51,831 nt of DNA from Planctomycetaceae bacterium (GTDB taxonomy: Bacteria; Planctomycetota; Planctomycetia; Planctomycetales; Planctomycetaceae). Of this stretch, positions 3,873-47,268 are shown one piece after another. How positions within the stretch are numbered: position 1 is the stretch's first letter; each line of letters begins with the position of its first letter. The translations under genes were made by a program, and so were the position numbers. The notes below the pieces were generated by a model that saw only the letters and a program-made list of their open reading frames with translations, was not told the DNA's origin and made no database searches. The stretch covers positions 4,622 through 56,452 of the forward strand of contig JBBDNT010000301.1 in NCBI GenBank assembly GCA_040877445.1, given 5' to 3'.

Positions 3873-3955
3873 GTCCCGTCGTTCCAAGTTTCTCGATTCG
3901 AAGGTCTTGACGCAGCCAGCGAAATTGGAACGACTGATGTCCGATTTTCTCACTC

Positions 3956-4055
3956 AGTAGTTCCAAGTTCCAAAGTTCCGAGTTCCATTTCGGAACCCAA
4001 CTACCGGAGATCACTCCGCCCTTTCGGAACTTGGAACTCGGAACTTGGAACTACT
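3956..4055. repeat. imperfect inverted repeat built from tandem GTTCCRA heptamers; possible terminator or operator between two minus-strand genes
   Basis: The left arm at 3956-3986 is agtagttccaagttccaaagttccgagttcc. The right arm at 4026-4055 is ggaacttggaactcggaacttggaactact, nearly its reverse complement. The element lies 3' of the amidohydrolase stop (4092) and about 85 nt 5' of the PQQ gene start (3872). Confidence 0.6.
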
Positions 4056-31712: not shown

Positions 31713-34700
31713 CGCTCCCGTCCCGCGGTGGTGGTGGAGACGGGTTCGAACGGACTAGGCGCCGGCCGGACGGCGGTCGGATCGTCGGCGCCGGCCGGGA
31801 GCGCGCGATGATTGCCGGACCCGCCCGCGGAGGGGGCGTAGAAATCGCTGGCCGCCGACAGCGTGATGATCGACGGGGCCCGCCGACGTTGAATCGTGTG
31901 CTCGATCGCCGCCGCCGCCACCGCCAGCAGCAGTCCCAGCAATGCCGGTTGCAACAGCACGCGCACCGGTTCGGCGTGCCACAGTCCCACGAGGGCGCCG
32001 GCGAAGGCGATCACCAGCAGCGTCAGCGCGTCGCGCGTGGCGGGAATCTTCAGCAGCACGAAGCCGGCCGCGAGCGCCAGTCCCGCGCCGAGCAGCACGA
32101 TCAGCGATTGGCTCATCGCTCGGAACTCGAGTGCGTCCACCGGTCCGAACCTGGCGAAGAGATACGAGTTGCCGGCCTCGAACATCGGTTCCGGCGCGGG
32201 GCCGTCGCCGGCGCCGATCCAGGCGTCGAGGTCCGCGTAGCCCGGCCGGACGTTTCGGGTCCAGAAGGCCGTGCCCCGCCGCCACTCATACATGGGCGTT
32301 AGCCCGCGCGGCGTGACGAACAAGTGCAGGTCGACCGGAAGGACGATTTCGGTCAACGACTGATCGACGCGAACGTTCGCCGGAAACCGGGCGACCGCCA
32401 ACCGCGACGCGTCCGCCCAGGTGAAGCCCCGCGGCGCGCTCTCCCGGAAGTCGATCGTCAAGAGGTGCTCGCCGGACACCGCTCCCGAAGTCCCATCGGC
32501 GATTTCCAACCGGTGCAAGCCGCCGTCGTCGTCGACCGGAACGAGGCGCTCCGGCGCGATCGTCTCGTGGTTCCACCACAGCGCCTGGACGGTTTGCTCT
32601 TCGGGAACGTGCAGCAGCAGCCTGGTGAAATCGCCCCGCAGGCGAAACTGCGCCCGGATCGACGCGTCGCCGTTGTGATCGAAAACCGTGCGGACTAGCG
32701 AGCGGCGGACGACGTAGTGCTGCGGGATGTCCGGACTGGCGCGTTCCAGTCGCACCACGATCGCGTCGCCGGGAGTCGAGGTCCGCCATTGCCGGCGATC
32801 GTCCATCGCCATCTGGCGCGTCCATCCGGATTCGGCGACGCTCACTTCAACCGTTTCGGTCGGTGGGGCCGACAAGACCAGCGCGCCGAACGGGGCCTCC
32901 GTCGGCAGCACGAGGGGCAACTTCGAATCGACCGGCTCGACCGGAGGGAGCGCCGTCCCGGGGTCGACGAAGTATTCCGCCACGATTTCGAACCAGCCGA
33001 TCCGCGGTTCCGAAAAGCGGATCGTCGCCTGCCGGTGGTCCGCATCGCCGCGGTCGGTCCAACTCGGCGTGAGGACCGCGCCATCGGCCGCCAGGAAGCG
33101 GACTTGTTCCCCCACGCCGCGGGGGACGAGTAGTCGCGCCTGCGGCAGCCGTTCATAGCGCACGTCGTAGGCGATCCGCTGGCGCACGAGCAGCCGGCCA
33201 TCAACCAGTTCGACCGCGGCGTCGGCCGAAGTCCGCACGATCCGCTCGTGCAGCGACAGCCGCACCGCGAGCAGCGCCGACGGCGACGGAACGCGATAGT
33301 GGGCGACTTCGTTCCGCGACGCGGGGGGGGACGCGCCGGCCATCGACCCTTCGCCGAACAACGGAAACGCATCGGCCAACTGGATGCGTTCGAGCGCGGT
33401 CTCGGCCGTCGGTTCGAGCTGCGCTTCGACCGCGTCGGCGGTGGTCACGAACAGGTCGGCCGGGGAGAGACTGGTGGTGTCGATTCCCGGCAGCGAAAGC
33501 ACCGTCGCTTCCGGCTCGGGAAGCATCTTCCGCCCGGCACGGACCCGGACCGTGAACTCGCCCGCTTGACGATCGCGCAACTGGATGCGGACGACATCGC
33601 TGGTCTCGTCCGTGTCGAAGTCGAACCGCTCGATGGCGGCCCCGTCCGCGGCGGGGGCGAACATGTCCGGCGGCTCGATCGTCCAGCCTTCGGCCCGCCG
33701 ATTCGGCCACGCCAGGTCCAGCGACTCGACGACGCCCCGATAGACGCGCACCTTGAACTCCGCGGTCAACTCCGCCCGCTGGCCCGAAAAGTGCAGCTTG
33801 TGCTCCGGTTGCACCGTGAACCCCGGAGGATTCCGCGTGACCGCCAGGCCCAGGCGGAACGGCTGCCGCAAGAAGCGATAAGCGCTTGCCAATGAAGGCT
33901 GCCCGATCACATCGCCGGCGTTGATGCGGTGCACGTTCGCCGCTTCGTAGCGGGCGATCCGCAATCCCTCCACGTGGGAGACGGCGATGTCGCCCGTTTG
34001 CCGCCGCGCGTGTTCGACTTCGAAACCCTCGAGCAACACCCGGCCCGATTCGGGCAACGGCGCCTGCAGCGTCCACCGCAGTTCGATCGGCCCCGTGCCC
34101 GGCTCGGTGAGTTTCACCGCCACGCGCTCGTCCGGAAGCGTCTCGTGCGAGGCGTAGCGCCGGCCTTCGACCGCGATCAGTTCGAATCCCGACGGAAGCC
34201 GGACCGTCAACGAGTCGAAGCTGCCCTGCCGCGCCTGCACGGACTGCACGACTTCCAGCAGCACGGAGTCGATCGTCGGCTTGACGGCGATCGACGCGAG
34301 CGACTCCAGCACCATTTCGACCTGCGCCGGATCGGGAAGCGGCTGCCAGGTCAGATCGAGCCGTTGCTCCAGTCCGAAGATTTCGATTTCGGTCGCGTCG
34401 TCCGACACGGCCCGAGTGCGAATCGTCGAGCGCGGGTCGCGTTCGGCGAGCGGATCGCCCGTTTTCACCGACACCCGCCGCATCGGGACCGCGATCCGCG
34501 CCTGACTCACCGCGGTCGCCGGCAGCGCGAGTTGAACCCGGCGCGTGGGAGACTGCTTGCGGACCGGCACGAACACCGACAGCGTGAGCGTGTGCAGCCC
34601 CTGTCCCTTGAGCGACCAGCGATAACCAGCGTCGCGGTCGAATTCGTCGAAGGCGGCGGTCCCCGGCCCGTCGTACGACGTGTCCCGCAGCACCGCTTCG

Positions 34701-35347
34701 TTCAACCGCAGGGGAACCCGCACCCATCCATCCGCGCGGTCGACCTGCACGCGGATCGTGGCGGTCAATTCCGCCCGCTCGTCTCCCGCCGTTCCCGCGA
34801 GCGCCACCGACGTGATGGCGTAATCCGGCCGAGCCGCCCGAGGAGGCGCGTTCTTCGCCGCGCGCCATTCGAGAAACGCCTTCAAATCCCCGTCGAGCGG
34901 GACCGGAACCAACTGGCCGCGTTCGTTTCTCAGGTAGATCGCGTCCCACTTCACCCCCCCTTCGGCGGGACGCGACACGGATGCGCCGCCGCCGTTCGAG
35001 GGAGTGAACATCGGCGCGACCGGCGACGCTCCCGTCGCGCGGGGCGTCGCTTCGGTCGGCGTTCCGTTCGCCTCTCGCGATCCGCCGCTCGTCCCGGATC
35101 GCGCTTCCGCGGGCGAACCGTTCGTCGAGTTCGAAGGCGACGAAGCATCGGCGGGCGCGGCGACGACGGAACGTGCCGGTGCCGCGGGCTGCTCCGATTG
35201 CGCGATTTGCTCCTGTCCCACGGCGGCGGTCGAGACCATCCACAGCGCCGCGAGCAGGCAAGCCGTGTAACCCAAACGGCGCACGTGGAAGCCCGATCGG
35301 TTCGACGGAGACATGTGCAGAGTGCGGACCATTCCCCCGGCCCGCAT
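31709..35347 (-). CDS. giant hypothetical envelope protein (1212 aa), a paralogous module of the downstream 2084-aa protein
   Basis: The signal peptide is GYTACLLAALWMVSTAAVGQ, followed by a Ser/Thr/Gly-rich linker, a large soluble region and the C-terminal TM cluster LIVLLGAGLALAAGFVLL...LLVIAFAGALVGLW...ALLGLLLAVAAAAIEHTIQRRR. This is the same TM1-loop-TM2-TM3-RRR layout as both modules of the neighbouring gene. The exact start is uncertain, with several in-frame ATGs at 35347-35314. Confidence 0.6.
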   Translation of the reverse strand: MRAGGMVRTLHMSPSNRSGFHVRRLGYTACLLAALWMVSTAAVGQEQIAQSEQPAAPARSVVAAPADASSPSNSTNGSPAEARSGTSGGSREANGTPTEATPRATGASPVAPMFTPSNGGGASVSRPAEGGVKWDAIYLRNERGQLVPVPLDGDLKAFLEWRAAKNAPPRAARPDYAITSVALAGTAGDERAELTATIRVQVDRADGWVRVPLRLNEAVLRDTSYDGPGTAAFDEFDRDAGYRWSLKGQGLHTLTLSVFVPVRKQSPTRRVQLALPATAVSQARIAVPMRRVSVKTGDPLAERDPRSTIRTRAVSDDATEIEIFGLEQRLDLTWQPLPDPAQVEMVLESLASIAVKPTIDSVLLEVVQSVQARQGSFDSLTVRLPSGFELIAVEGRRYASHETLPDERVAVKLTEPGTGPIELRWTLQAPLPESGRVLLEGFEVEHARRQTGDIAVSHVEGLRIARYEAANVHRINAGDVIGQPSLASAYRFLRQPFRLGLAVTRNPPGFTVQPEHKLHFSGQRAELTAEFKVRVYRGVVESLDLAWPNRRAEGWTIEPPDMFAPAADGAAIERFDFDTDETSDVVRIQLRDRQAGEFTVRVRAGRKMLPEPEATVLSLPGIDTTSLSPADLFVTTADAVEAQLEPTAETALERIQLADAFPLFGEGSMAGASPPASRNEVAHYRVPSPSALLAVRLSLHERIVRTSADAAVELVDGRLLVRQRIAYDVRYERLPQARLLVPRGVGEQVRFLAADGAVLTPSWTDRGDADHRQATIRFSEPRIGWFEIVAEYFVDPGTALPPVEPVDSKLPLVLPTEAPFGALVLSAPPTETVEVSVAESGWTRQMAMDDRRQWRTSTPGDAIVVRLERASPDIPQHYVVRRSLVRTVFDHNGDASIRAQFRLRGDFTRLLLHVPEEQTVQALWWNHETIAPERLVPVDDDGGLHRLEIADGTSGAVSGEHLLTIDFRESAPRGFTWADASRLAVARFPANVRVDQSLTEIVLPVDLHLFVTPRGLTPMYEWRRGTAFWTRNVRPGYADLDAWIGAGDGPAPEPMFEAGNSYLFARFGPVDALEFRAMSQSLIVLLGAGLALAAGFVLLKIPATRDALTLLVIAFAGALVGLWHAEPVRVLLQPALLGLLLAVAAAAIEHTIQRRRAPSIITLSAASDFYAPSAGGSGNHRALPAGADDPTAVRPAPSPFEPVSTTTAGRER

Positions 35348-36034: not shown

Positions 36035-36613
36035 TCAGGACTGGACCTTGCGTTCGGCCAGTTTGCGGCGCGCCCGCGTGAGCACGGGGCCGATCGTGTT
36101 TTCCGGAATTCCCAATCCGGAACTGATCTCGCCGTACGACCGTCCTTCCAGATGAAACAGGCGGACGATCTCGGCGTCGGCGGCGGGAAGGACCTTCAAC
36201 AGTTGGTGAACTTCGTCGCGGTCTTCGATGCGCTTGAAATCGGACGGTTGCGTGCGGACCTTCTCGAGCGACGTCCGGTTCACCTGCACGTGCCCCAGCG
36301 CCTCGGCCATCTTGCGGCGCGACATCTCGCGCACTACGATCCGCCGGGCGACCACGGTCAGATACGTGGCCAGCGAACTGTTTCCGCGAAAGTTCCGCAG
36401 CACGGCGAAGTCGCGGGATACCAGCGTCGTGAAAATCTCCGCGCAGATATCATCCACGTCTTCGGGACGCACCCCCACGCTGCGCGCCTGGGCGGTGTGG
36501 TGGATCACATGCACGAACAACCCGATGAACCGATCGACGAGATCCTTCCAAGCGCCCGGTTCCTGGGCGAGACACCGCCGCAGCAGGTTGCGATCGATTT
36601 CGGTCAAGGCCAC
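36035..36613 (-). CDS. RNA polymerase sigma-70 factor, ECF subfamily
   Basis: The sigma-2 region is LVDRFIGLFVHVIHH...DVDDICAEIFTTL. The sigma-4 HTH is RLFHLEGRSYGEISSGLGIPENTIGPVLTRARRKL. I chose the GTG at 36613; the ORF extends to 36709. Confidence 0.7.
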   Translation of the reverse strand: MALTEIDRNLLRRCLAQEPGAWKDLVDRFIGLFVHVIHHTAQARSVGVRPEDVDDICAEIFTTLVSRDFAVLRNFRGNSSLATYLTVVARRIVVREMSRRKMAEALGHVQVNRTSLEKVRTQPSDFKRIEDRDEVHQLLKVLPAADAEIVRLFHLEGRSYGEISSGLGIPENTIGPVLTRARRKLAERKVQS

Positions 36614-36775
36614 TGGTATTCCGACTCCCTCTGCGGCGCCGCGGCCGCGGCTGCCGAAACGAGTGAACGGGATACCGTCAAATGTACGTTCCCGGCGCCA
36701 TTCCGGCAAGATGAACCCGCCCGTTTCGCCCCGCGGCGGTGGCCGCCCGACCGAAAAGCCGTGCCGAAGTCCGGC

Positions 36776-37369
36776 TCAATCGCAGTCGCGGCACACCGTC
36801 CGGTCGGGCCGGGGTTCGTAGTCCGTCAGGTTTCCGCGGCGGTCGAACTCGAACGTGCAACAGCGATCGAGAGCTTCCTTGAGCAGCCTCCGGCCGCGTT
36901 GGATGCGGGATTTGGCTCCGGACAGCGAGAGTCCCAGCCTGTCCGCGACTTCCCGCCCCGGCACTCCCTCGATCTCCGCCAACCGGACCGCCTCGCGGTA
37001 CTTTTCGGGCAACTCGCGGATCAATCCCTCGAGCCACGATCCCGCCTCGTTCCGCAGATGTCCCACGCGATCCATCTCGGCGGCGGCCGGTTCCGTATCG
37101 GACAGTTCGACGGCGGATTCCGAGGTCTTGCGGTAGTGATCGACGATGACGTTGCGGGCGATGCGATGGACCCACGCCGCCAGGCGATCCGCATCGGCGA
37201 GCGCGTCGATCCCGCGGTGAATCCGCAGAAACGTCTCCTGCAGCAGATCCTCGGCGGCGTGGTCGTCGGCGACGCGGCGGCGGATGAACCGCCGCAGGTC
37301 GCCGCTCAATCGCAGCCACGCCGCATCAGTGGCCGGTCGTGCCGTCATGCGACGGCCTCCCGGCAGCAC
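36776..37369 (-). CDS. ECF sigma factor with C-terminal cysteine-rich extension (CorE-like candidate metal-sensing sigma)
   Basis: Sigma-2: EDLLQETFLRIHRGI...AWVHRIARNVIVDHYR. Sigma-4: LPEKYREAVRLAEIEGVPGREVADRLGLSLSGAKSRIQRGRRLL. An extra 28-aa tail, CCTFEFDRRGNLTDYEPRPDRTVCRDCD, carries a CC pair and a CxxC. Confidence 0.7.
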   Translation of the reverse strand: MLPGGRRMTARPATDAAWLRLSGDLRRFIRRRVADDHAAEDLLQETFLRIHRGIDALADADRLAAWVHRIARNVIVDHYRKTSESAVELSDTEPAAAEMDRVGHLRNEAGSWLEGLIRELPEKYREAVRLAEIEGVPGREVADRLGLSLSGAKSRIQRGRRLLKEALDRCCTFEFDRRGNLTDYEPRPDRTVCRDCD

Positions 37370-37803
37370 TCGCTCTGCGACGAACGATGATTCACCCCGT
37401 CGTCGTCGAGGACGACGTACGTCTCCCAGCGGTTTCCGTCCGGATCGGCCGCCCAGACCTTGTTCTGCACGGCATAGCAGCAGGCGACCCGCTCCTCGGT
37501 CCGGGTGGCGTATCCGGCGGCGGCGAGTCGGTCGGCGACCGTCCGAACCGCGTCGCTCGACTTGACCTGAATCCCGAAGTGAGCGATCGGGTCGGACGGA
37601 CCCGTTGCTCCGCCGGCCTCGTTCAGCGACAGGTTCACCGGCGGCTCGGCGACCTCGAACTTCGCGTAACCCGGACGGGTTTTCGACGGCCCCTGCCCGA
37701 ACAGCATCCGATAGAAGGCGACCGAGCGCTCCAAGTCGTTCACGGCCAGCCCCATGTGAATGCGGCTGTTCGTCTCGAATCGCACCGCGGATTCATGGCT
37801 CAT
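37345..37803 (-). CDS. VOC (glyoxalase/bleomycin-resistance/dioxygenase) family protein, ArsI/CadI-like with vicinal cysteines
   Basis: The N-terminal half has a glyoxalase-fold beta-alpha-beta pattern (HMGLAVNDLERSVAFYRMLFG ... HFGIQV). Vicinal Cys pairs VACCYAV and SECC lie near the C-terminus, as in ArsI/CadI-type metalloenzymes. Its stop overlaps the CorE-like sigma start by 25 nt. Confidence 0.6.
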   Translation of the reverse strand: MSHESAVRFETNSRIHMGLAVNDLERSVAFYRMLFGQGPSKTRPGYAKFEVAEPPVNLSLNEAGGATGPSDPIAHFGIQVKSSDAVRTVADRLAAAGYATRTEERVACCYAVQNKVWAADPDGNRWETYVVLDDDGVNHRSSQSECCREAVA

Positions 37804-38169
37804 GGTTCAGCTCCAAGTTCATCGTGGTTCACGATCGTGGTTCATGTCCGGCGGCTGCCGGCCCTTCCAATCATACAGACGAACGCGGGGCAAAAAGGAC
37901 GCGGAAAATCCCCGGCGCCGCGCGGTGTCGCGACGCCGGCGAATTGCCGTTGACGGGGTTCGCGAAACCGCCTATGGTTCGCCCCGCTTCGGCCGGGGCG
38001 ATCGCCTCCGGTCGAAGCAGCGGCCTGTCGGCCACTCTCTCTCGATGTTCTCCGCCGATCGCCGAACGACCCGCACACGTTGGTTCATTCATCGAAGCGC
38101 CGTCCCATTCCGAGCGGCACTTCGGCTGCACGTCTCCCCCGCAATTCGTGGTCGCGAAAGGACTCGACG

Positions 38170-38505
38170 ATGAGGAATCTCATTCTCCGAACGCTGTGCC
38201 TGGCCCTCATTTTCACGGCGTGTGGATGCTGTTGCCACGGCAGCCACCGGATGTGGCCGTTCTGCGGAACGAAGCGCTGCTTCGGCGGCGGATCGTACCC
38301 GGGTTACATCGGCCCCTCGACCGCCCCCTGCAATCCCTGCCCGACCGGCGCCTGCCCGCCGAGCGGCGGCGGCGCCGTGCCCTACTATCCCTCCGGCTCG
38401 TACCAATCGTACGACACGATTTCGCCGGTCTCCGGACCGGTTGCGTCGCCGACGTACTATCCAGCCTCGGCCATGGCGCCGATCGAATCGCTCCCGACGT
38501 ATTGA
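38170..38505 (+). CDS. small secreted/lipoprotein-like Cys-, Pro- and Gly-rich protein with a CGCCCH cluster
   Basis: An ATG at 38170 gives MRNLILRTLCLALIFTACGCCCHGSHRMWPFCGTKRCFGGG.... The signal peptide ends in a lipobox-like FTAC. The mature part holds 10 cysteines in about 50 residues, followed by a PYYPSGSYQSY-type low-complexity tail. GC3 is high and coding-like. Confidence 0.5.
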   Translation: MRNLILRTLCLALIFTACGCCCHGSHRMWPFCGTKRCFGGGSYPGYIGPSTAPCNPCPTGACPPSGGGAVPYYPSGSYQSYDTISPVSGPVASPTYYPASAMAPIESLPTY

Positions 38506-38581
38506 TCCCGATCCGCGGCACCGATACCGCAACTCGGCCACGAGTTCGGACAGGGGCGTCCTCCGCGACCAATCAGAATCG

Positions 38582-38609
38582 CCCCCGGCGCGATCCCGCG
38601 CGCCGGGGG
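38582..38609. terminator. perfect GC palindrome between convergent genes (bidirectional intrinsic-terminator candidate)
   Basis: The palindrome is cccccggcgcg-atcc-cgcgccggggg. It lies 77 nt after the Cys-rich gene stop and 12 nt after the SPFH gene stop. Confidence 0.55.
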
Positions 38610-38620
38610 CGTGTTCGTCG

Positions 38621-39727
38621 TCACAGCAGGTTGACGATCCGCTCGGCGAGTCCTTTTTCGCCGAGAACGACGTTGAGGTGTCCCGCCGAGGCGACCTTCT
38701 CGAGAACCTCCAGTTCCCGCAGCCGCATCAGCGTCGGGTTGTCGGCCAGCAACTTGGCCGTGTTGGCCTGGCTGCGCATCGCCGCCGTCTCCTCGCGGCG
38801 GGAGATGAGGTTGGCCTCGGCGGCCTTCTTCGCCTCCGTGACCTTGTTCATCAGGTCCTTCATGTCGCCCGGGAGGATGACGTCGCGGATGCCGGCCGAA
38901 ACGACCTGCAATCCCAGTTCACCCGCCCGCGCGCGAACCATCTCCTCCACCTCCCGCGCGATCGCGTCCTTGTCCGCGAGGAAGGCGTCGAGTTCCCGCG
39001 CACCGATCACGGCCCGCAGCGCCAGCTGCGCTTCGCGGTACAGCGCCTGGCGGACGTCCTCCGCCGCGCTCACCGCCTTCCGCGCATCGACGATGCGGTA
39101 GGTGACCACGGCGTTCATGCGGAGCGTGACCTTGTCCGCCGTCATGATCTCCTGACCGGCGACGTCGGACATGCTTTCCCGCAGGTCCACCTCGACCACC
39201 TTCGAGTCGGCCGCGTCCTTCCAGAACGCGTACCGGCCCGAAGGCAGCGTCTCGACGTACGCGCCGTCCACGAACAGCACGCCCAAGCGGTCGCGCTCGA
39301 CCGTGCAGACGTCGAGCACCCGGCTCACCAGCGGCGAACAGGCGATCGTCTTCAGCTCGTCGTGGACGAACCGCACCCGCCGCGCGTCGACGATCTCGAC
39401 CCGCACGTCGCGGAATCCGATCCAGTAGGCGTACAGTCCCTTCGGCAGGACGTGGCTGAAGCGGCCGTCGATCCAGACGAGCGCCCGCTCGTGGTCCTTC
39501 AGGTCGAGGACGACGGCGCGCTCGGCGAGCGCCCCCGACTTGACGATCACGTCGAGCTTCTCGTGGACGAGCCACGGATCGCGCTGCGAGACGACCTGCA
39601 CGCGGACCTTCCGCAGCGGGTCGAAGAAGACGTAACGACCCGCGCCGAGCAGACCCCGGAACTCCTCGTCCCGGAAGTACAGGCCGATCTCGTAGCTGCG
39701 GATCTTGACGCGGCGGAAGGGGAACAT
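38621..39727 (-). CDS. SPFH/band-7 domain protein (stomatin/flotillin-like)
   Basis: The N-terminal beta-rich region is followed by the band-7 core (TADKVTLRMNAVVTYRIVD...) and a long Ala/Glu/Arg coiled-coil tail (EAKKAAEANLISRREETAAMRSQANTAKLLADNP) typical of SPFH proteins. Confidence 0.8.
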   Translation of the reverse strand: MFPFRRVKIRSYEIGLYFRDEEFRGLLGAGRYVFFDPLRKVRVQVVSQRDPWLVHEKLDVIVKSGALAERAVVLDLKDHERALVWIDGRFSHVLPKGLYAYWIGFRDVRVEIVDARRVRFVHDELKTIACSPLVSRVLDVCTVERDRLGVLFVDGAYVETLPSGRYAFWKDAADSKVVEVDLRESMSDVAGQEIMTADKVTLRMNAVVTYRIVDARKAVSAAEDVRQALYREAQLALRAVIGARELDAFLADKDAIAREVEEMVRARAGELGLQVVSAGIRDVILPGDMKDLMNKVTEAKKAAEANLISRREETAAMRSQANTAKLLADNPTLMRLRELEVLEKVASAGHLNVVLGEKGLAERIVNLL

Positions 39728-40271
39728 TGGGGATAGTAGTCAGTGGATAGTGGATAGTGGGTAGTAGTCGGCGAGCCTCCCGCGTGAGCGGGGGGGTGAA
39801 GTCAGCGATCAGAGGTCAGAGATGAGTACTGAGCACTCTGTACTCAGTACTTGGTATTCGCGACGGTTGCGGGGTGAAACGAAAACGCCTTTGGGAGGCG
39901 GGCTGCGTCGTGCGGTCACACGTCGGCACGCGGAGTATCGCTTGAGCGCTCGCGGCCGCCGGCGTCCGAATGCTTCGCTCGACCGGATCCCGCGCGGCCG
40001 AAGCCGCGCGTTTCGCCGGTCGCGTTCCGCAAACTTCTTCCGACGGCGGACCAACGCGGAATCCACACACTGCAAGGCGTCCGTGCGTGCTGCCGTCCTC
40101 CGCGACACGCGCCGCCGCGGTTCGGTTCACCGAACTGGCCGAAGCCGGTTCGGGTTCCCGCCTCGCGGCGTGCGATTACGAATCGACGGCGGACCGTGCG
40201 ACCGCCCGCCTCCCTCGGGCAAAGTGGAGGACGCTTTCGCGCCCGCGTGGTCAGGTCGATTTCAAGTCGAC

Positions 40272-40344
40272 CGGGTGGTACGGGAGTCGAACCCGTGACA
40301 GCCAGATTATCAGTCTGGTGCTCTACCCACTGAGCTAACCACAG
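40272..40344 (-). tRNA. tRNA-Ile (anticodon GAT), with an imperfect acceptor stem
   Basis: The reverse complement reads CTGTGGT-TA-GCTC-AGTGGGTA-GAGC-A-CCAGA-CTGATAA-TCTGG-CTGTC-ACGGG-TTCGACT-CCCGT-ACCACCC-G. The D-arm, anticodon arm (loop CTGATAA, anticodon GAT) and T-arm (TTCGA) are canonical. Positions 1-2 (C,T) do not pair with 71-72 (C,C). CCA is not encoded. Confidence 0.6.
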
Positions 40345-40820
40345 CCGATGCCATCCGGTTCCGAACCCAGTGAGGAACACGCGCCGCCAAATCGCCTGAT
40401 GACGAGGCGCCGCGCGCCGCTGGCCGAACGACACCGTCCGTTTGCCTGAATTTCCTCCTTTGACAGCCGTGGAACGGACGCACCGTCGGGCGAAATGGTT
40501 CGCGTCATCCCGACCATTCTCGACAATCATCCCGCAACTCCGCTCCGCGAGCGCCCCGTCATTCGACGTCCGGCGCATCCGGCGGGGTGCGGCAATCTTC
40601 ACTGGCGTGTGGCAAAAAGTCGGGTGGCGGGGGCGCTTCGCGCAGCGAAAGCCCCCGTCGCGCGCCACGGGGGCTTCCGCGTTGCGGAGCGCCCCCGCCA
40701 CCCATCGCCACAGAGATTGGCGTCGCCAGGAACTCTTGCCGCCCCATCCGGCGACCATCTTCGGTTCCGCCTTGATCCGGCGTTCCATGTCGTTTACGAT
40801 CGATGGTCGAGGCGAACGTC

Positions 40821-41219
40821 ATGACGGCCACTCTTCAACGAGCCTTTCTCTGCGTCGTCGTTCTGGTCTGTCCGCTGTGGTGCGGCGCCGGAGCGGCTGC
40901 CGGGCCGGATCCGCCGGCCAGCGGTCGCTGCTGTTGTTGTCACCACCCCGCGGCGCCGACCGGCCCGTCGCAACTTCCGCCGACGAACGATCACGACGAC
41001 TCCGCCTGCCAATGCTTCTGCGGCGGGGCCGTGGTCGACAAGGAAGCCGGTCCGCGGCTTCCCCTCGACGATGCCGGTCCGTTCGACGGTTCGATCGTCG
41101 CGGCGATCCTCGCGGATCGCAGCGGCACGCGGCTCGTTCTTCCCGAGCCCGCGACTTCCCGCGAGTGCGCACAACCGGGGCGCGCCGTCTGTCTGCGCGC
41201 GATGCGCTTTCTCTGCTAG
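40821..41219 (+). CDS. small secreted Cys-rich protein with a CCCCHH cluster
   Basis: An ATG at 40821 gives MTATLQRAFLCVVVLVCPLWCGAGAAAG, a signal peptide. The mature region carries GRCCCCHHP, then Pro-rich sequence and a second cluster CQCFCGG. It lies in a different frame from the long Arg-rich ORF 40442.., which I take to be an artefact upstream of 41369. Confidence 0.45.
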   Translation: MTATLQRAFLCVVVLVCPLWCGAGAAAGPDPPASGRCCCCHHPAAPTGPSQLPPTNDHDDSACQCFCGGAVVDKEAGPRLPLDDAGPFDGSIVAAILADRSGTRLVLPEPATSRECAQPGRAVCLRAMRFLC

Positions 41220-41368
41220 CGCGCCTTCCGCCCGCTTTCGACCCCGTGTGCGGACGCGCCGCGCGTTCTTCTCGAATGCGGCTCCGGCGTGATCCGCGGT
41301 CGATTTCTTCGTCGTTCGTTCGTGCCGCATCGGCGGCTCGCGCGAGCCGAATCGCGGAAGGCCTTCCG

Positions 41369-42532
41369 GTGTTTCGACTGCTCCCGTGGGAGTACGGCGT
41401 TCGCAACCTGATGCGCCGGCCCGTCCGCACGCTGCTGACGTTCGCCGGGCTGACGACGGTGATCGTGCTGATTCTCGTCGTCGCGGGATTCATCCGCGGG
41501 CTGGAGCGGTCGCTGGCGGTCAGCGGCGACCCGGCCACGGCGATCGTGTTCGGTCTCGGCATGGGCGAAAACCTCGAATACTCGTCGATCCCCATGCGGA
41601 CCAGCGATCTCGTCGCGGCCAGCGTCGGCGGCATTTCCGAACGGCACGGGCGGAAGTACGTCTCGCCGGAACTGTATCTCGGAACGGAAGTCGGCATTCA
41701 GGGACGGGACAAGCCGGGCTTTGGACTGGTGCGCGGACTGACGCCGGCCGTGTTGCTTGTCCGGCAGCAAGTCGAGATCGAAGCAGGCGCGTGGCCCAAG
41801 AGCGGCGAAGTGCTCGTCGGTCGAATGGCGGCCGTCAAACTCGGACTGGCGCGCGATGCGTTGCGAATCGGCGACGTGCTCGAGTTCGAAAACCGGCGGT
41901 GGCGGATCAGCGGGCTGTTCTCGGCCGGCGGGGCGACGTTCGAATCCGAAATCTGGTGCCGGCTGGATGAACTCCAGCAGGCGATGAAGCGGCAGGATCT
42001 GAGTCTGGTGGCGCTCACGCTCGCTCCGGGGGGGGACTTCGCCGATCTCGATCTGTTCTGCAAGGAACGGCTCGACCTGGAGTTGCAGGCGATGCGCGAG
42101 ACCGCCTACTACGACACGCTCCAGAAGGATTACCGTCCCGTGCGGATGCTCGCCTGGCTGGTGGTGCTGCTGGTCGCGGGGGCCGGAACGTTCGCCGGTC
42201 TCAACACGATGTACGGCGCGGTCGTGGGCCGCGTCCGCGAGTTGGCGACGTTGCAAACGCTCGGCTTCGTCCGCCGGGCGATCGTCGTCAGTCTGTTCCA
42301 GGAAGGACTGCTGCTCGCGGCGGCGGCGAGCCTGTTCGCCACGCTGCTGGCGGTGACGATTCTCGACGGGGCCGCCGTGCGGTTCACGATGAGCGCCTTC
42401 GCGCTCCGCGTGGATGAGGTCGCCGTGCTCATCGGCTGCGGAGCCGGTATGGCGATCGGCCTGTTGGGGGCGATTCCCCCGGCGATCCGCGCGATGCGGC
42501 AACCCATCGTCGAAGGATTGAAGGCGATTTGA
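41369..42532 (+). CDS. ABC transporter permease, FtsX/MacB-like family
   Basis: A GTG at 41369 gives VFRLLPWEYGVRNLMRRPVRTLLTFAGLTTVIVLILVVAG, the FtsX N-terminal signature (LRNL.RRP.RTLLT + TM1). A large periplasmic domain and three C-terminal TM helices follow. The upstream 309 codons of the ORF are Arg-rich non-coding-like sequence. Confidence 0.75.
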   Translation: MFRLLPWEYGVRNLMRRPVRTLLTFAGLTTVIVLILVVAGFIRGLERSLAVSGDPATAIVFGLGMGENLEYSSIPMRTSDLVAASVGGISERHGRKYVSPELYLGTEVGIQGRDKPGFGLVRGLTPAVLLVRQQVEIEAGAWPKSGEVLVGRMAAVKLGLARDALRIGDVLEFENRRWRISGLFSAGGATFESEIWCRLDELQQAMKRQDLSLVALTLAPGGDFADLDLFCKERLDLELQAMRETAYYDTLQKDYRPVRMLAWLVVLLVAGAGTFAGLNTMYGAVVGRVRELATLQTLGFVRRAIVVSLFQEGLLLAAAASLFATLLAVTILDGAAVRFTMSAFALRVDEVAVLIGCGAGMAIGLLGAIPPAIRAMRQPIVEGLKAI

Positions 42533-42761: not shown

Positions 42762-43313
42762 ATGCAATGCTCGAAGAAGCTCATGCAGGTGAAATGGTTG
42801 GCCGCGCTCGCGATCGTCGCGGTGTTCGCCGGATGCAACCGCGGAACGACGGAGACTGCACCCGATCGAACTGACGCGAGCGAATCGAACGCCGACCGTG
42901 CCGAATTCGTGCTCGCCGACGAGCCGGACGGTGCGAACGACGTGATCGCCGCCCGCGAATCTTCATCGGACGGCGACGATGTGGTCGTCGTCGGTCGGAT
43001 CGGCGGCAGCGAAAACCCGTGGGTCGAGGGACGCGCGGCGTTCTCGATCGTCGATCGCTCGCTCCAGGCGTGCAGCGACATCCCCGGCGACGCCTGTTCG
43101 ATGCCGTGGGACTATTGTTGCGAGACCGACAAACTGCCGAAGGCGACCGCGCTCGTGAAGTTCGTCGATGCCGACGGCCAGCTCGTGAAGTCCGACGCCC
43201 GCGAACTGCTGGGGCTGAAGGAATTGCAAACGGTCGTCGTCCGCGGCAAGTCGCACCGCGACGAGAGCGGCAACCTGACCGTGCTCGCGAACGGCGTCTT
43301 CGTCCGCGAATGA
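42762..43313 (+). CDS. hypothetical lipoprotein
   Basis: An ATG at 42762 gives MQCSKKLMQVKWLAALAIVAVFAGC with the lipobox FAGC. The mature region is acidic and includes CSDIPGDACSMPWDYCCE. It sits between the permease and the HlyD adaptor in one orientation. Confidence 0.55.
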   Translation: MQCSKKLMQVKWLAALAIVAVFAGCNRGTTETAPDRTDASESNADRAEFVLADEPDGANDVIAARESSSDGDDVVVVGRIGGSENPWVEGRAAFSIVDRSLQACSDIPGDACSMPWDYCCETDKLPKATALVKFVDADGQLVKSDARELLGLKELQTVVVRGKSHRDESGNLTVLANGVFVRE

Positions 43314-43335
43314 GAGAGAGTGTGTCTTCGAATCC

Positions 43336-43405
43336 GTAGCGGAAGTCGCAAGACTTCCGACGCTCGCTCGGACGCTCTCGGAATTCTTGCGAATTCCGCT
43401 ACGTC
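43336..43405. repeat. composite REP-like element: two inverted 24-bp hairpin motifs (CGGAATTCTTGCGAATTCCGCTAC family), also resembling an ECF-type -35/-10 promoter
   Basis: The sequence at 43336-43359 is gtagcggaagtcgcaagacttccg. The sequence at 43379-43402 is cggaattcttgcgaattccgctac, followed by gtc. Each motif is an 8-bp stem with a ttgc loop. The two substitutions in the first copy are compensatory (cggaagtc/gacttccg). On the plus strand this reads GGAAT-N17-CGTC, 55 nt upstream of the HlyD start. Confidence 0.6.
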
Positions 43406-43460
43406 GATGGCGGCGTCAACGCATCACCACGGCTTTCGAAGACAGACTCGGAGGTGCTCC

Positions 43461-45068
43461 ATGCGTGCCGATGTCGATCTGTCGCAATTGGCGCTCGATC
43501 GCGGTCCGGGGCCGGCCATCCGGTCCCGGAGCCGCATCGGGTCGCGGTATGTCCTGCCGGGAGCGTTGTTGCTGGGCGTGTGCGGACTCGCGGTGTGGGG
43601 CACATGGAATCTGCTGTTCCCGCCGCGGGCGGTGACGGTCGTTCCCGTACACGTCAGCCGCAGCGCGATCCAGCGGGAAGGGACGCCGCTGTTTCAGGCC
43701 GCCGGCTGGGTCGAGCCGCGTCCCACGCCGATCCGCGTCGCCGCGCTCGCGCCCGGAGTGATCGAGGAACTGCTCGTCGTGGAAGATCAGGTGGTCGAGG
43801 CGGGGGAGCCGGTCGCCCGTCTTGTCCGGGAAGACGCCGAACTCTCTTACCGCCGGGCGCAGGCCGATCTCGCCCTTCGCCAGGCGGAAGTCGCCGAGAC
43901 CCGCGCGCTGTTGCAGGCGGCGGCGACGCGCCTCGATCAGCCGGTGCATCTGGAAGCCGTCGTCGGCGACGCGGAGGCCTCGCTGGCGAAGGTCGAGACC
44001 GCCCTGGAGACGATCCCGTCCGAAATCGACTCGGCCGTTGCGAAAGTCGAGTACGCCCAGGCCGACTACGATCGGCGCATCGCCGCCCGCGACGCGGTGA
44101 CGACTCTCATGCGCGAGGAAGGCCGAAGCGCGCTCGCGATTGCGCGAGCGAATCTGGAAGGACTGAAGCGTCGTCGAGTCGCGCTCGACAACGAGCGGAA
44201 GGCGCTCGCGGCGCGGCGCGACGCGCTCCGCACGCAGCTCGAATTGCTCGCCGACGAAATCGAAGCCCGCGACACCGCTTACGCGCGGCTGAAATCCGCC
44301 GAGGCCCGCGTCGAACAGGCCGAGGTGGCGCTGGCGGAGGCGAAGCTGCGGCTCGACCGCATGACCGTCCGCGCCCCGGTCGCCGGACGCGTGTTGAACC
44401 TCACCTCCGATCCCGGCACGCGGTTGACCGAGGGAATGGGAGACGCCGGCACCGAAGACATGAGCACCGTCGTCACCATGTACCGGCCGGAAAGCCAGCA
44501 GGTCCGCGTCGACGTGCGTTTCGCGGACATTCCTCATGTCGCGCTCGGCCAGCCGGTGCGGATCGAGAACCCGGCGGTGAAGGAACCGCTCAGCGGGCGG
44601 GTGTTGTTCATCAGCTCGCGGGCCGACATTCAAAAGAACACGCTGGAAGTGAAGGTCTCGATCGACTCGCCGCCTTCGGTGTTCAAGCCGGAGATGCTCG
44701 TCGACGTGACGTTCCTCGCGCCGGAGATCCTCGACGATGAATCCGAACCGTCGGAAGAGCTGCGGATCTACGTCCCGCAACGGTTGATCACGCGCGACGG
44801 CGACGCCGCTTTCGTATGGGTGGCCGATCAGTCGGAAGGCCGCGCCCGTCGCGTTTCCGTCGAACTCGGTGCGGCGAGCGGCGACGGGCTGGTCGAAGTC
44901 GCGTCCGGGCTGACGATCGCGAGTCGCCTGATCGCGGGGGGGCACGATGGACTCCGCGACGGCGACCGAATCCGCGTGACTGGCGAAGAGACCCTCTCGG
45001 AAGCCACGGCCCCGGCCGCCGAGCGCTCCCGCAACCCCAGCCGCTTTCCCACGGGAGACGCATCGTGA
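43461..45068 (+). CDS. HlyD-family periplasmic adaptor (membrane fusion protein)
   Basis: An ATG at 43461 is preceded by a GGAGG RBS. The product has an N-terminal TM anchor [16 protein letters not shown], a long Ala/Glu/Arg/Leu coiled-coil ([26 protein letters not shown] ... [31 protein letters not shown]) and a beta-barrel C-terminus. Its stop overlaps the next gene's GTG (GTGA). Confidence 0.8.
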
Positions 45069-45796
45069 CCGCACTCGTCCAGGTTCGCCACGTCGCCAAG
45101 CGCTATCACAAAGGGGGCGAAACGATCACGCCGCTCGACGGCGTCTCGCTCGACGTCGCGCAAGGGGAGTTTCTTTCGCTGATGGGGGCCAGCGGGACCG
45201 GGAAATCGACGCTGTTGAACCTCATCGCGGGCATCGACCGCCCGGACGAAGGAAGCATCGCCGTCGCCGGAACCGAAATCACCCGCCTCTCGCGCACGCG
45301 GCTGGCGCATTGGCGGGCGGCGAACGTCGGCTACATCTTTCAGACGCACAACCTCGTGCCGGTGCTCACCGCCTACGAGAACATCGAGCTGCCGTTGCTC
45401 TTGCTTTCGATGTCGCGAGCCGAGCGCCGCAAGCGCGTCGCCGTCGCGTTGGAAGCGGTCGGGCTGACCGACCGGGCGGACCATTATCCCCGGCAGCTTT
45501 CCGGCGGACAGGAGCAGCGGGTCGGCATCGGCCGGGCGATCGTGGCGCATCCCACGCTGGTCGTCGCCGACGAGCCGACCGGCGACCTCGACCCCGAAAC
45601 CTCGGAGCAGATTCTACACCTGCTGCGGCGGCTCAACGACGAACTCGGCATCACGCTGCTGATGGTCACGCACGATCGGGAGGCGGCGGGAATCGCCGAC
45701 CGGCAATTCCATCTCGATCAGGGCCGGCTGGTGGAATCGGGAATGGGAGATCGAAAATCAGAGATCAGAGATCCGGCGTTGTCATCGAACCGGTAG
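45065..45796 (+). CDS. ABC transporter ATP-binding protein (MacB/LolD-type)
   Basis: Walker A is [12 protein letters not shown]. The ABC signature is [14 protein letters not shown]. Walker B is [12 protein letters not shown], and the H-loop is VTHD. Confidence 0.85.
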
Positions 45797-46016: not shown

Positions 46017-46125
46017 ACGCTGCCACCGCAAATGCGAACTTGACGAGGTACTTCGGCATGATGCCTATCGCGCGCATTGACCGCTTTTGGCTGGCACTTG
46101 GCCTCTGACCTCTGGGAACCAAACA

Positions 46126-47268
46126 ATGCTCCGCTTCCTCCCCTACATCGCGAAGACGCTCTGGCGGCATCGCTCGCGGACGCTGTTGACCGTGAGCGGT
46201 TCGGCCGTGGCGTTGTTCGTGTTCTGCGTCATCGGCGCGATCCATGAAGGCATGCACGATCTGCGGACCCGGCAGGAGGCGGAGCAATCGCTGATCGTCT
46301 TCCAGGCGAACAAGTTCTGCCCCGCGACCAGCCATTTGCCGCAGGATTACGACGAGCAGATCGCACGCTTCGACGGCGTGCGCGACGTCGTGCCGATCCA
46401 GGTCTTCACCAACAACTGCCGGGCGAGTCTCGACGTCGTCGTGTTCTATGGACTGCCGGCGGCGAAGCTCCGCGCGATCCGCGATTTCGAGCTGACCGAC
46501 GGGAACTGGTCGGAGTTCGAGCGCAATCAGGACGCGGCGGTCGTCGGCCGGGCGGTCGCCGCGCGGCGGGGCATCCGCGTGGGCGACAAGTTCTCCATCG
46601 GCGACATCTCGACGGTGGTCGCCGGGATCTACTCGTCGGGCAATCCGGCCGAGGAGAATTACATCTACACGCACCTCGACTTCCTGCAGCGCCGCCGGGG
46701 GGCGGACTCGGTCGGTACGGTGACGCAGCATGAAGTGCTGTTGGCCGAAGGCATCGACGCCGCGGCGGTGGCCGAAAATATCGACGACCAGTTCCGCGGC
46801 GGCCCGGTCGAAACCGACACGCGGCCGAAGGGCGTCTTCCAGGCGAAAAGCCTCGGCGATCTCGCGCAGCTCATCGCGCTGTCGTATTATCTGGGACTCG
46901 CCTGCGTGGGGCTGGTGCTCGCGCTGGTGGCGACGACGACGCTGATGTCGGTCCAGGATCGCGTCCAAGAGCACGCGGTGTTGCAGACGCTCGGCTTTTC
47001 CGGCCCGCGGGTGTTCGCGCTCGTGCTGACCGAGAGCGTCGTGCTCGGCTTGGCGGGCGGCGCGCTCGGCGTGGGCGGGGCGTTCGTCGTCCTCGAGTCG
47101 ACGAGCCTCGCGATCAGCGCCGAGGCGGTCAGCGTCGCCTTTCAGGCTTCCTGGCGTCTCGCCGGCGTCGCCTTGTTGACGGCCCTCGCGACCGGCTTCC
47201 TCGCCGGCATTCTCCCCGCCTGGCAAGCCGCCCGCACCGAGATCGTCCCGGCGCTGCGGAATGCATGA
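46126..47268 (+). CDS. ABC transporter permease, FtsX/MacB-like family (second copy)
   Basis: An ATG at 46126 gives MLRFLPYIAKTLWRHRSRTLLTVSGSAVALFVFCVIGAI, the FtsX N-terminus plus TM1. A periplasmic domain and three C-terminal TM helices (LIALSYYLGLACVGLVLAL..., VFALVLTESVVLGLAGGALG..., LAGVALLTALATGFLAGILPA) follow. Confidence 0.75.
   Translation: MLRFLPYIAKTLWRHRSRTLLTVSGSAVALFVFCVIGAIHEGMHDLRTRQEAEQSLIVFQANKFCPATSHLPQDYDEQIARFDGVRDVVPIQVFTNNCRASLDVVVFYGLPAAKLRAIRDFELTDGNWSEFERNQDAAVVGRAVAARRGIRVGDKFSIGDISTVVAGIYSSGNPAEENYIYTHLDFLQRRRGADSVGTVTQHEVLLAEGIDAAAVAENIDDQFRGGPVETDTRPKGVFQAKSLGDLAQLIALSYYLGLACVGLVLALVATTTLMSVQDRVQEHAVLQTLGFSGPRVFALVLTESVVLGLAGGALGVGGAFVVLESTSLAISAEAVSVAFQASWRLAGVALLTALATGFLAGILPAWQAARTEIVPALRNA

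Follow-up and report, generated by a model that had tools for sequence, protein, structure and literature searches.

A cysteine-rich small-protein family of Planctomycetota, apparently dedicated to a MacB-type tripartite cassette

The 51,831-nucleotide stretch of Planctomycetaceae bacterium DNA analyzed here (GenBank assembly GCA_040877445.1, contig JBBDNT010000301.1, positions 4,622 to 56,452; called the window below) carries two small open reading frames (ORFs) for Cys-rich proteins, ORF A (38170-38505, plus strand, 111 amino acids [aa]) and ORF B (40821-41219, plus strand, 132 aa). Our main subject is ORF B, which precedes the genes of a MacB-type pump, and the closest described systems are those of CruR, CutF, and CusF. 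CruR of Bordetella pertussis (Bp2923) is an exported 145-aa protein with a DUF2946 domain, encoded in an upstream ORF (Roy et al. 2022, PMC9426467). Its CxxC motif lies 45 +/- 1-2 residues from a RAPP arrest motif that stands three residues before the stop codon, and this fixed spacing is functionally required (PMC9426467). A 162-bp intergenic region follows, and the downstream genes are under copper-responsive post-transcriptional control; CruR heads copper-uptake operons (with a TonB-dependent transporter) and acts through Rho (PMC9426467). The same paper mentions only "a few" DUF2946 proteins in Planctomycetes.

CutF of Rhodobacter capsulatus has 118 aa, is exported by way of the signal recognition particle (SRP) and Sec, and carries C69xxxC73 and a C-terminal PPP; when its translation stalls in the presence of copper, a stem-loop that conceals the ribosome-binding site (RBS) of cutO opens, and the protein product is hardly detectable (Ozturk et al., 10.1101/2022.11.11.516240; 10.1101/2025.02.05.636593; PMC8456105). 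CutF, which with CruR makes up the characterized DUF2946 proteins, was first interpreted as a chaperone (PMC8456105). To count as CutF-like, a gene must encode a product of <150 aa that starts with a signal peptide and has PP among its last 15 residues, and another gene must lie on the same strand <1 kb downstream; such genes often precede OEP, HlyD_D23, and resistance-nodulation-division (RND) efflux genes (10.1101/2022.11.11.516240). FtsX, MacB, and ABC (ATP-binding cassette) do not occur in the main text of that survey, and Planctomycetota are unmentioned there. CusF, in turn, is a small periplasmic protein of the tripartite CusCFBA Cu/Ag efflux operon (PMC6235853).

Across the loci that we collected, an ORF B homolog stands directly 5' of the gene for a MacB-type permease, FtsX1, on the same strand and at a distance of 79 to 318 nucleotides (nt), in 17 of 18 cases; in the 18th (L026), the contig ends 267 nt past the ORF B homolog. 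The adjacency of ORF B and FtsX1 is invariant, and it was overlooked in an earlier note on this DNA, whose author, reading the letters alone, had seen mere proximity. We regard ORF B as a dedicated small gene before a MacB-type tripartite cassette that appears to be specific to Planctomycetota. In the window, the arrangement is as follows.

40821..41219, plus strand: ORF B, 132-aa member of a Planctomycetota family (HMMER, alignment, synteny)
41220..41368, plus strand: 149-nt intergenic region between ORF B and FtsX1 (fold)
41369..42532, plus strand: FtsX1, MacB-type permease with MacB_PCD and FtsX domains (Pfam)
42762..43313, plus strand: four-Cys periplasmic or lipoprotein component (alignment of 11 homologs)
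43320..45068, plus strand, start codon uncertain: membrane-fusion (periplasmic adaptor) protein (Pfam HlyD_3, HlyD_D23)
45083..45796, plus strand: ABC ATPase of the LolD/DevA/FtsE/MacB type (Pfam ABC_tran, E 4e-35)
46087..47268, plus strand: FtsX2, a second, distinct MacB-type permease (Pfam MacB_PCD, E 2e-18; FtsX, E 1e-12)

To collect homologs of ORF B, we searched 1.84 billion cluster representatives (clustered at 50% identity) exhaustively with HMMER, which returned 30 full-length relatives (E values of 7e-9 to 9e-4; 125 to 180 aa) plus a truncated 100-aa representative, P0015, that was left out of the motif statistics. A pattern scan of GTDB species genomes with two peptide patterns yielded 15 loci, and contigs obtained via exact-protein look-up added L025, L026, and L027; the family sample comprises 30 cluster representatives and 18 genomic loci, and its anatomy is drawn from 44 to 45 sequences. 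Because the representatives were clustered at 50% identity and only two peptide patterns were scanned, the family size is a lower bound. All relatives come from metagenome-assembled genomes (MAGs), and the MAGs behind the 15 genome loci all belong to Planctomycetota (Pirellulales, Lacipirellulaceae, Pirellulaceae, and Planctomycetaceae). Apparent frameshifts in four loci (L010, L016, L017, and L018) split pump genes or the ORF B C terminus, and these are probably assembly errors, not pseudogenes. A word-indexed protein search with ORF B found itself alone, and the same kind of search with the family profile found only four proteins, its candidate list being swamped by low-complexity words. No Pfam or NCBIfam family matched ORF B at an E of <=0.1, and no PDB entry was related to its profile at an E of <=1. 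The author of the earlier note had recognized neither ORF as a described family, and Pfam, NCBIfam, and PDB bore this out for both; a homolog search of the kind that the note had proposed gave the 30 relatives, with their Cys motifs kept. We consider the ORF B family an undescribed, unannotated family of Planctomycetota.

The genes behind ORF B conform to the description of MacB-type (type VII ABC) systems, with MacB_PCD plus FtsX found twice, an ATPase, an HlyD-family adaptor, and, in relatives, an outer membrane factor (OMF). FtsX1 is 66 to 76% identical to the window copy in the genome loci and L025 and 54% identical in L027, and FtsX2 is 66 to 71% (~68%) identical in related loci. The adaptor (~50 to 60% identical across loci) scores 122 bits against NCBIfam RND_mfp, above the cut-off of 94.9. 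The best NCBIfam matches of the ATPase (~75% identical) are LolD, DarD, FtsE, and DevA, all under their equivalog cut-offs. Between FtsX1 and the adaptor lies a protein that is 45 to 63% identical among 11 homologs and has an invariant GRIGG..NPW..C-x7-C-x2-PWDYCC; about half of the homologs carry a lipobox and the rest an ordinary signal peptide. This protein had no match in Pfam, NCBIfam, or PDB, and single-sequence AlphaFold2 (AF2) gave no usable model (predicted local distance difference test [pLDDT] score of 40). The related loci share no conserved gene 3' of FtsX2 and no conserved regulator gene beside the cassette, and on this comparison a conserved flanking regulator or extra gene, which we had considered, was rejected.

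In 8 of the 15 genome loci, a TolC-like OMF gene (OEP, PF02321, E 6e-34) lies directly 5' of ORF B on the same strand. No OMF homolog was found anywhere in the window (tblastn, E <= 1e-3), where a tRNA-Ile gene and an SPFH gene take its place upstream of ORF B. The ~1.1 kb from 39728 to 40820, which corresponds to the position of the OMF gene in those 8 relatives, holds no convincing gene besides the tRNA-Ile gene. Like MacAB-TolC, LolCDE, DevBCA, and Aat (PMC5985334, PMC8333309), the cassette combines MacB_PCD plus FtsX permeases, a separate LolD/DevA-like ATPase, an HlyD-family adaptor, and, in relatives, a TolC-like OMF, and it shares with LolCDE the use of two different permeases and one ATPase. 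Unlike described members of the MacB superfamily, it has a Cys-rich small ORF before a permease gene and the four-Cys PWDYCC protein, and, unlike the named systems, it misses every equivalog cut-off. As judged from its domains, the cassette is a bona fide tripartite system of the MacB superfamily, yet it reaches no equivalog cut-off.

ORF B reads MTATLQRAFLCVVVLVCPLWCGAG...GRCCCCHHP...DHDDSACQCFCGGAVV...QPGRAVCLRAMRFLC, with C17-P-x-x-C21, then C37-C40 followed by H41-H42, then C63-Q-C65-F-C67-G-G-A70, and finally the C-terminal QPGRAVCLRAMRFLC. Family members are mostly 125 to 150 aa long (mean of 138), with three at 163 to 180 aa and P0015 at 100 aa, and contain 12.3 Cys per 138 residues on average. 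In 32 of 44 members, the distance from Met to the invariant Cys is exactly 16 residues. The N terminus has K/R at positions 3 to 4 and a mean Kyte-Doolittle hydropathy of 2.15 over 17 residues, and it ends in an invariant C-P-x-x-C; the remainder of the protein is acidic (net charge of -5.9). AF2, run with 31 sequences, predicted a helix over residues 2 to 21 (pLDDT of ~90), with a mean pLDDT of 62, a predicted template modeling score (pTM) of 0.28, and no confident fold outside that helix. The export test of the N terminus was heuristic (hydropathy, charge, and AF2 helix); the signal peptides that the earlier note had claimed for both ORFs are supported to the extent that both N termini are hydrophobic and compatible with export. 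Around the invariant Cys of ORF B, the -3 residue is I/V/L in 43 of 44 members, the -2 residue is L/V/F, and the +2 residue is an invariant Pro, while the -1 residue is A/G/S/T in 25 members and V/L/I/M/Q/C in the other 19. Strict lipoprotein status of the family was rejected on account of these 19 bulky residues; the N terminus may be a lipoprotein signal or an uncleaved anchor.

A linker of 42 to 77 residues (standard deviation [SD] of 5.8), acidic and rich in Pro, follows and contains C-x-C-C, which is the conserved unit and is followed by His in about half of the members. The consecutive-Cys-His cluster to which the earlier note drew attention is present in both window ORFs, but as a family trait it does not hold, since a run of >=3 Cys occurs in only 8 of 44 ORF B members. 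The next conserved element is C-Q-C-I-C-G-G-A-V. From the last Cys of CxCxC to the C-terminal Gly, the spacer measures 53 to 54 residues in 35 of 43 sequences (SD of 1.2; range of 49 to 56), although no other part of the protein is less conserved in sequence. The C terminus, P-D-D-G-M-N-P-G-R-A-[LM]-[RC]-C-L-x-x-[ST]-[FY]-L-C, runs directly into the stop codon, and the G-R of NPGRAxRCLxxxxLC lies exactly 13 residues from the end in all 43 sequences. Purifying selection acts across the whole length, with a ratio of nonsynonymous to synonymous substitution rates (dN/dS) of 0.2 to 0.5 in the spacer. ORF B is ~30% identical across loci, compared with ~45 to 78% for the pump proteins, and evolves 3 to 8 times faster than they do.

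Three ORF B members align to nearly the full length of the Pfam DUF2946 profile (PF11162), at 11.6 to 14.3 bits (E < 0.5), and this similarity led us to take up the comparison with CutF and CruR; the DUF2946 scan covered all 31 members at an E of <=0.1 and 20 of them at an E of <=1. When ORF B is set against the definition of CutF-like genes, it is shorter than 150 aa, it has an export signal by heuristic features, and the same-strand FtsX1 gene begins 149 nt downstream (within 1000 nt), with efflux-pump genes as neighbors, although an OMF gene stands before ORF B in 8 of 15 loci. Its Cys motif keeps a conserved distance of 53 to 54 residues, compared with 45 +/- 1-2 in CruR and ~40 in CutF. 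In this respect, ORF B reproduces the most distinctive property of CutF and CruR, a Cys motif at a fixed distance from a C-terminal peptide that is anchored to the stop codon.

The resemblance to CutF extends to a small protein with predicted export, a gene directly upstream of its partner gene, a central Cys motif, a conserved extreme C terminus, an efflux-gene neighborhood, and a predicted RNA fold over the RBS of the next gene, the last of these being suggestive only for ORF B. Unlike CutF, it ends in NPGRAxRCLxxxxLC with no PP or PPP, has three or four Cys motifs rather than one, has a spacing of 53 to 54 instead of ~40 residues, precedes a MacB-type ABC pump, and belongs to the phylum Planctomycetota. 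With CruR it shares a Cys motif tightly spaced from a C-terminal motif set a fixed number of residues before the stop, as well as a long intergenic region before the next genes. It differs from CruR in its CxCxC, CC, and CPxxC in place of CxxC, in the lack of RAPP, in a DUF2946 score under the gathering threshold, in an OMF gene 5' of it in about half of the loci, in the lack of a rut-like C>G skew, and in belonging to an efflux rather than an uptake operon. By these comparisons, ORF B would work most like CutF/CruR or CusF, but our tests place it in neither family. Judged by its architecture, a sensor acting in cis is no less probable than the metal-sequestering peptide that the earlier note had suggested.

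The reading that we rank first, with a probability of about 0.4, is that ORF B is a cis-acting, exported, thiol-based metal sensor of the CutF/CruR kind. The hydrophobic 16-residue N terminus would target the nascent chain co-translationally to the Sec translocon, and CPxxC at the membrane edge, C-x-CC, and CQCICGGAV would reach the periplasm while the ribosome is still on NPGRAxRCLxxxxLC. Binding of Cu(I), Zn, or Cd, or thiol oxidation, 53 to 54 residues from the C-terminal peptide would then lengthen or shorten the stay of the ribosome on the last codons. A ribosome at the stop codon would remodel the structured 80-320-nt intergenic RNA, the window helix over GGAAGG/GTG would open, and the opened RNA would set the expression of the pump genes. 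We also considered a more specific version, in which the family is a proline-independent transmembrane nascent-chain sensor with a new arrest peptide, NPGRAxRCLxxxxLC, and a 53-54-residue ruler, switching on the MacB-type pump upon thiophilic metal or thiol stress; we consider this version less likely than not.

In the intergenic region of the window, a predicted helix (41223-41231 with 41354-41362) would bury the GGAAGG that stands shortly before the GTG start codon of FtsX1. The fold has a predicted energy of -88.4 kcal/mol (z = -2.2), and the stop-proximal sequence makes 11.7 expected pairs with the RBS, compared with 2.9 in shuffles, although fold statistics of this kind are weak evidence in GC-rich sequence. 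Over the 15 loci, the same pairing totals 55.6 expected pairs, compared with 34.3 +/- 11.5 in shuffles; a total this high was obtained in 3 of 60 shuffle sets (P of ~0.05). RBS sequestration by an intergenic helix is suggestive on these models. Eight of 17 intergenic regions (L010-L024 and L027 sampled) contain the 7-mer GCTGCGC, whereas in 200 shuffles no 7-mer was shared by more than 5. In five of those eight, it lies 30 to 32 nt past the stop codon; the window's own intergenic region lacks it. One subclade has a conserved hairpin 12 to 17 nt past the stop codon, with one compensatory pair. The length of the intergenic region was dropped as an argument for regulation, as other gaps inside the window cassette are also long.

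Several observations weigh against a sensor of this kind. The best DUF2946 score, 14.3 bits (E of 0.069), falls short of the gathering threshold of 23.7, chance matches are expected at such E values, and the ORF B of the window has no DUF2946 match. PP occurs in the last 15 residues of none of 44 members and within the last 30 residues of 8, and without PP or RAPP the defining stalling element of CutF and CruR is therefore absent. With about 12 Cys spread over three or four conserved motifs, the protein has many more than a CxxC sensor would need, which better suits a metal-binding protein. The spacer is not neutral, and its fixed length could equally be explained by a folded, metal-dependent domain. 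Nor is ORF B always first, as 8 of 15 loci have a TolC-like gene before it on the same strand, which puts ORF B in the place of cusF in cusCFBA. At the RNA level, about a third of the loci lack the stop-proximal pairing with the RBS, RNAalifold over 16 intergenic regions returned no consensus structure, and these regions show none of the C>G skew typical of Rho utilization sites. One locus (L019, ~3115-3215) has a near-perfect long palindrome, CCACTGCTGGCTTGTCCAGCAGTGG...CACTGCTGGGCAAGCCAGCAGTGG, which enlarges its intergenic region to 318 nt and looks like an insertion of the repetitive extragenic palindrome (REP) or miniature inverted-repeat transposable element (MITE) type; a palindromic insertion at this place also speaks against the region's proposed role.

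Nearly as probable is that ORF B instead acts in trans, as a membrane-anchored or lipidated metallochaperone or small pump subunit that, in the manner of CusF, would pass a thiophilic metal to FtsX1/FtsX2 and the adaptor for expulsion through a TolC-like duct. Its Cys wealth, set in CPxxC, CxCC, CQCICGG, and RC..LC, the purifying selection over its full length (the spacer included), the lipobox-like residues before Cys17, and its place between OMF and pump genes in 8 of 15 loci, like that of cusF, all fit such a role, as do a second cassette protein with an invariant four-Cys motif and an adaptor whose second-best NCBIfam match, far below cut-off, is the CzcB/NccB metal-efflux adaptor family. 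CutF was once read as a chaperone too (PMC8456105), and sensor and chaperone are therefore hard to separate from sequence alone. However, scans of Pfam (CusF_Ec, PF11604, included), NCBIfam, and PDB gave no similarity to CusF, known chaperones, or metallothioneins, no fold is confidently predicted, the rate of evolution is 3 to 8 times that of the pump proteins, 19 of 44 members have a bulky residue in the lipobox, and no metal-handling role is known for a MacB-type pump. An invariant C-terminal end (13 residues, 43 of 43), together with a spacer of fixed length and poorly conserved sequence, would also be unusual for a soluble domain. The parallel with CusF itself covers gene position and proposed soft-metal ligands; CusF is a Met/His/Trp protein of the oligonucleotide/oligosaccharide-binding (OB) fold serving an RND pump, whereas ORF B has no sequence or predicted-fold similarity to it, uses Cys, keeps a hydrophobic N terminus with an invariant CPxxC, and stands before an ABC pump. 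The strict one-to-one linkage of a fast-evolving small protein of predicted export with a pump could also mean that ORF B is cargo, a Sec-exported disulfide-rich or lipidated protein that the pump would take from the periplasm or inner membrane and release at the cell surface or into the medium, with the C-terminal peptide as its recognition signal. Two permeases with one LolD-like ATPase, as in the lipoprotein extractor LolCDE, and the lipobox-like N terminus are in keeping with this, and small proteins that are Cys-rich or lipidated have precedents as substrates of the MacB family: the MacAB-TolC system of Escherichia coli exports the enterotoxin STII, and the Aat system exports lipidated dispersin/CexE. 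We nevertheless think a cargo role quite unlikely, as the cassette has no maturation or acyl-transfer enzyme, the invariant CPxxC falls within the presumed signal peptide or at its border, a spacer of fixed length would be unexpected, the lipobox is imperfect in 43% of members, and nothing points to a toxin or adhesin function.

Two further explanations question the genes or pair them. One or both ORFs might be chance open frames in GC-rich DNA, given that long ORFs overlap them on other frames, that the third-position GC content (GC3) of ORF B (0.76) contrasts only moderately, and that the word-indexed search with ORF B found no homolog. GC3 is 0.81 for ORF A and 0.77 to 0.93 for neighboring genes, and it is lower in the alternative frames that overlap the two ORFs. 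For both, dN/dS is well below 1 (0.15 to 0.21 for ORF A against two homologs at dS of 0.7 to 1.2; 0.25 to 0.5 for closely related ORF B pairs), and ORF B has 30 full-length homologs with invariant motifs and fixed termini and a synteny kept in 17 loci; these results refute the chance-frame explanation, to which we assign practically no likelihood. The earlier note had itself raised the danger of spurious ORFs, which is averted by this selection and by the Cys positions kept in homologs, and we take both ORFs to be genuine genes under purifying selection. That note had further read the two as linked periplasmic metal-sequestering peptides in a metal-resistance island with a sigma factor and a vicinal oxygen chelate (VOC) protein. 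Its motifs lie at exactly the places it gave (CGCCCHGSH in ORF A, CCCCHH in ORF B), in each case beside a hydrophobic N terminus; the window, read in six frames (103,662 codons), has only six runs of >=3 Cys, among them those of ORF A and ORF B, both followed by His; and an ArsI/CadI-type VOC gene and the gene for a Cys-tailed extracytoplasmic function (ECF) sigma factor lie 366 nt from ORF A. The neighbors it named (SPFH, tRNA-Ile, the VOC/sigma pair, and the MacB exporter) are likewise all present. The pairing itself, though, failed: hhalign gave a probability of 3.6% and aligned the signal peptides alone, and a hidden Markov model (HMM) built from 45 ORF B-family sequences did not detect ORF A while finding exactly one copy per locus, on which grounds homology between the two was rejected. 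The two families being unrelated, their common C3-4-H string is therefore convergence. No homolog of ORF A, SPFH, VOC, or SigZ occurs at the 15 ORF B genome loci, so the proposed partnership with the sigma/VOC pair is not conserved, and ORF A homologs lie in unrelated neighborhoods, one flanked by XdhC and def-fmt and the other, in a different genome, by HEAT-repeat and EVE genes, without ORF B, SPFH, VOC, sigma, or pump genes. ORF A also owns a promoter and a terminator. A linked pair is very improbable and already contradicted by these comparative data; as far as homologs and neighborhoods indicate, ORF A and ORF B are neither homologous nor functionally linked. ORF A has the following parts.

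38170..38505, plus strand: ORF A, lipoprotein-like, Cys-, Pro-, Gly-, and Tyr-rich protein of 111 aa (homologs, dN/dS)
37950..37978, plus strand: sigma-70-like promoter, TTGACG-17 nt-TATGGT (consensus scan)
37980..38169, plus strand: 5' untranslated region (UTR) of ORF A, ~190 nt, conserved, probably structured (identity, RNAalifold)
38580..38611, no strand assigned: perfect 13-bp hairpin, all 13 pairs G-C, terminator-like, between the convergent ORF A and SPFH genes (terminator scan)

The ORF A protein starts with MRNLILRTLCLALIFTACGCCCHGSHRMWPFCGTKRCFGGG, continues with PCNPCPTGACPP, and has a Pro/Tyr/Ser-rich tail ending in APIESLPTY; its motif order is CGCCCHGSH..C..C..PCNPCPTGACPP..APIESLPTY, and 61 of its 111 residues are Cys, Pro, Gly, Ser, or Tyr. 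It has only two known relatives, P0003 (77% identity) and P0004 (69%). Two metagenome scans, one with motif patterns and one with a back-translated PCNPCPTGACPP pattern, found no further relatives, and ORF A therefore stays a three-member family. No match was found in Pfam (E <= 0.1), NCBIfam, or PDB (profile, E <= 1). From C20 on, C20-C22 included, every Cys is invariant in the three sequences. The earlier note had placed a lipobox at FTAC; a lipobox-like signal is indeed there, but C18 is Ser in P0004, and the -3 residue of F-T-A-C18 is non-canonical, while an alternative, A-[CS]-G-C20, is conserved. The acylated Cys, if any, is therefore more likely C20, in which case the mature protein would start with C-C-C-H-G-S-H.

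Both promoter hexamers are kept in the two homologous loci despite differing upstream genes, and the 5' UTR is 74 to 76% identical to its counterparts in L001 and L004 (promoter and 5' UTR at ~3420-3631 and ~3750-3971, respectively), compared with 68 to 73% for the coding sequence. RNAalifold predicts 54 pairs in the 5' UTR, among them pairs between the GAAAGGA Shine-Dalgarno sequence and a CU-rich stretch; covariation is weak because there are only three sequences. No Rfam family matched the 5' UTR, the Rfam scan having returned the tRNA alone, and the region could be an undescribed cis-regulatory leader. ORF A appears to be a self-contained promoter-5' UTR-ORF-terminator unit in three different neighborhoods. 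A role as a CutF-like leader was considered for it and rejected, as its loci share no gene downstream on the same strand and the terminator behind it is strong.

We interpret ORF A as an independent, lineage-restricted, small lipoprotein-like orphan; it may be a lipoprotein that binds metal or, just as well, an envelope protein cross-linked by disulfides. A composition rich in Cys, Pro, Gly, Ser, and Tyr is classically reported for planctomycete envelopes. The YTV proteins of Rhodopirellula baltica are one case, described as Cys/Pro-rich envelope proteins in work by Hieu et al. (2008) as cited in PMC3343278. ORF A resembles them in predicted export and in this composition; it differs in having no match to the YTV repeat family in Pfam (E <= 0.1), only 111 aa, a lipobox-like signal, and an invariant CCCHGSH.

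The remaining features of this part of the window are these.

38621-39727, minus strand: SPFH/Band_7 gene (Pfam, E 1e-24)
40272-40344, minus strand: tRNA-Ile(GAT) (Rfam)
37345-37803, minus strand: ArsI/CadI-family VOC gene (NCBIfam, 151 bits; cut-off 116)
36776-37369, minus strand: SigZ-type ECF sigma gene (NCBIfam, 193 bits; cut-off 168.65)
36035-36709, minus strand: second ECF sigma gene

The VOC and SigZ-type sigma genes overlap by 25 nt, and the sigma factor ends in a Cys-rich tail (CC...C.DC). Together, they look like a sensor-sigma pair, one that is not conserved beside ORF A homologs. Farther upstream, a pair of very large ORFs (2084 and 1212 aa) lie side by side on the minus strand at 25458-35347. 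At an E of <=0.01, Pfam gave no match to the 1212-aa ORF, which contains out-of-frame CCC runs.

ORF A, a rare orphan, matters less than ORF B, yet it offers a mobile promoter-UTR-ORF module and an invariant CCCHGSH. If ORF B does act as a sensor like CutF and CruR, co-translational transmembrane metal sensing would extend beyond Proteobacteria and Bacteroidota, and its targets would extend past copper oxidase, RND, and TonB systems to MacB-type pumps. There would be a new non-proline arrest motif for ribosome studies, and rule-based searches that require a PP motif would be missing whole families. Were the proline-independent version to hold, ORF B would be the first case of a leader peptide controlling a type VII ABC pump and the first sensor of this kind characterized in Planctomycetota, and its arrest sequence would represent a new class. 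As a chaperone or cargo, ORF B would instead add a new accessory component to the type VII ABC systems. Planctomycetota are genetically poorly understood, and their efflux systems and metal homeostasis are essentially uncharacterized; a small family obligatorily coupled to one ABC efflux cassette gives a direct experimental handle on the function of the pump.

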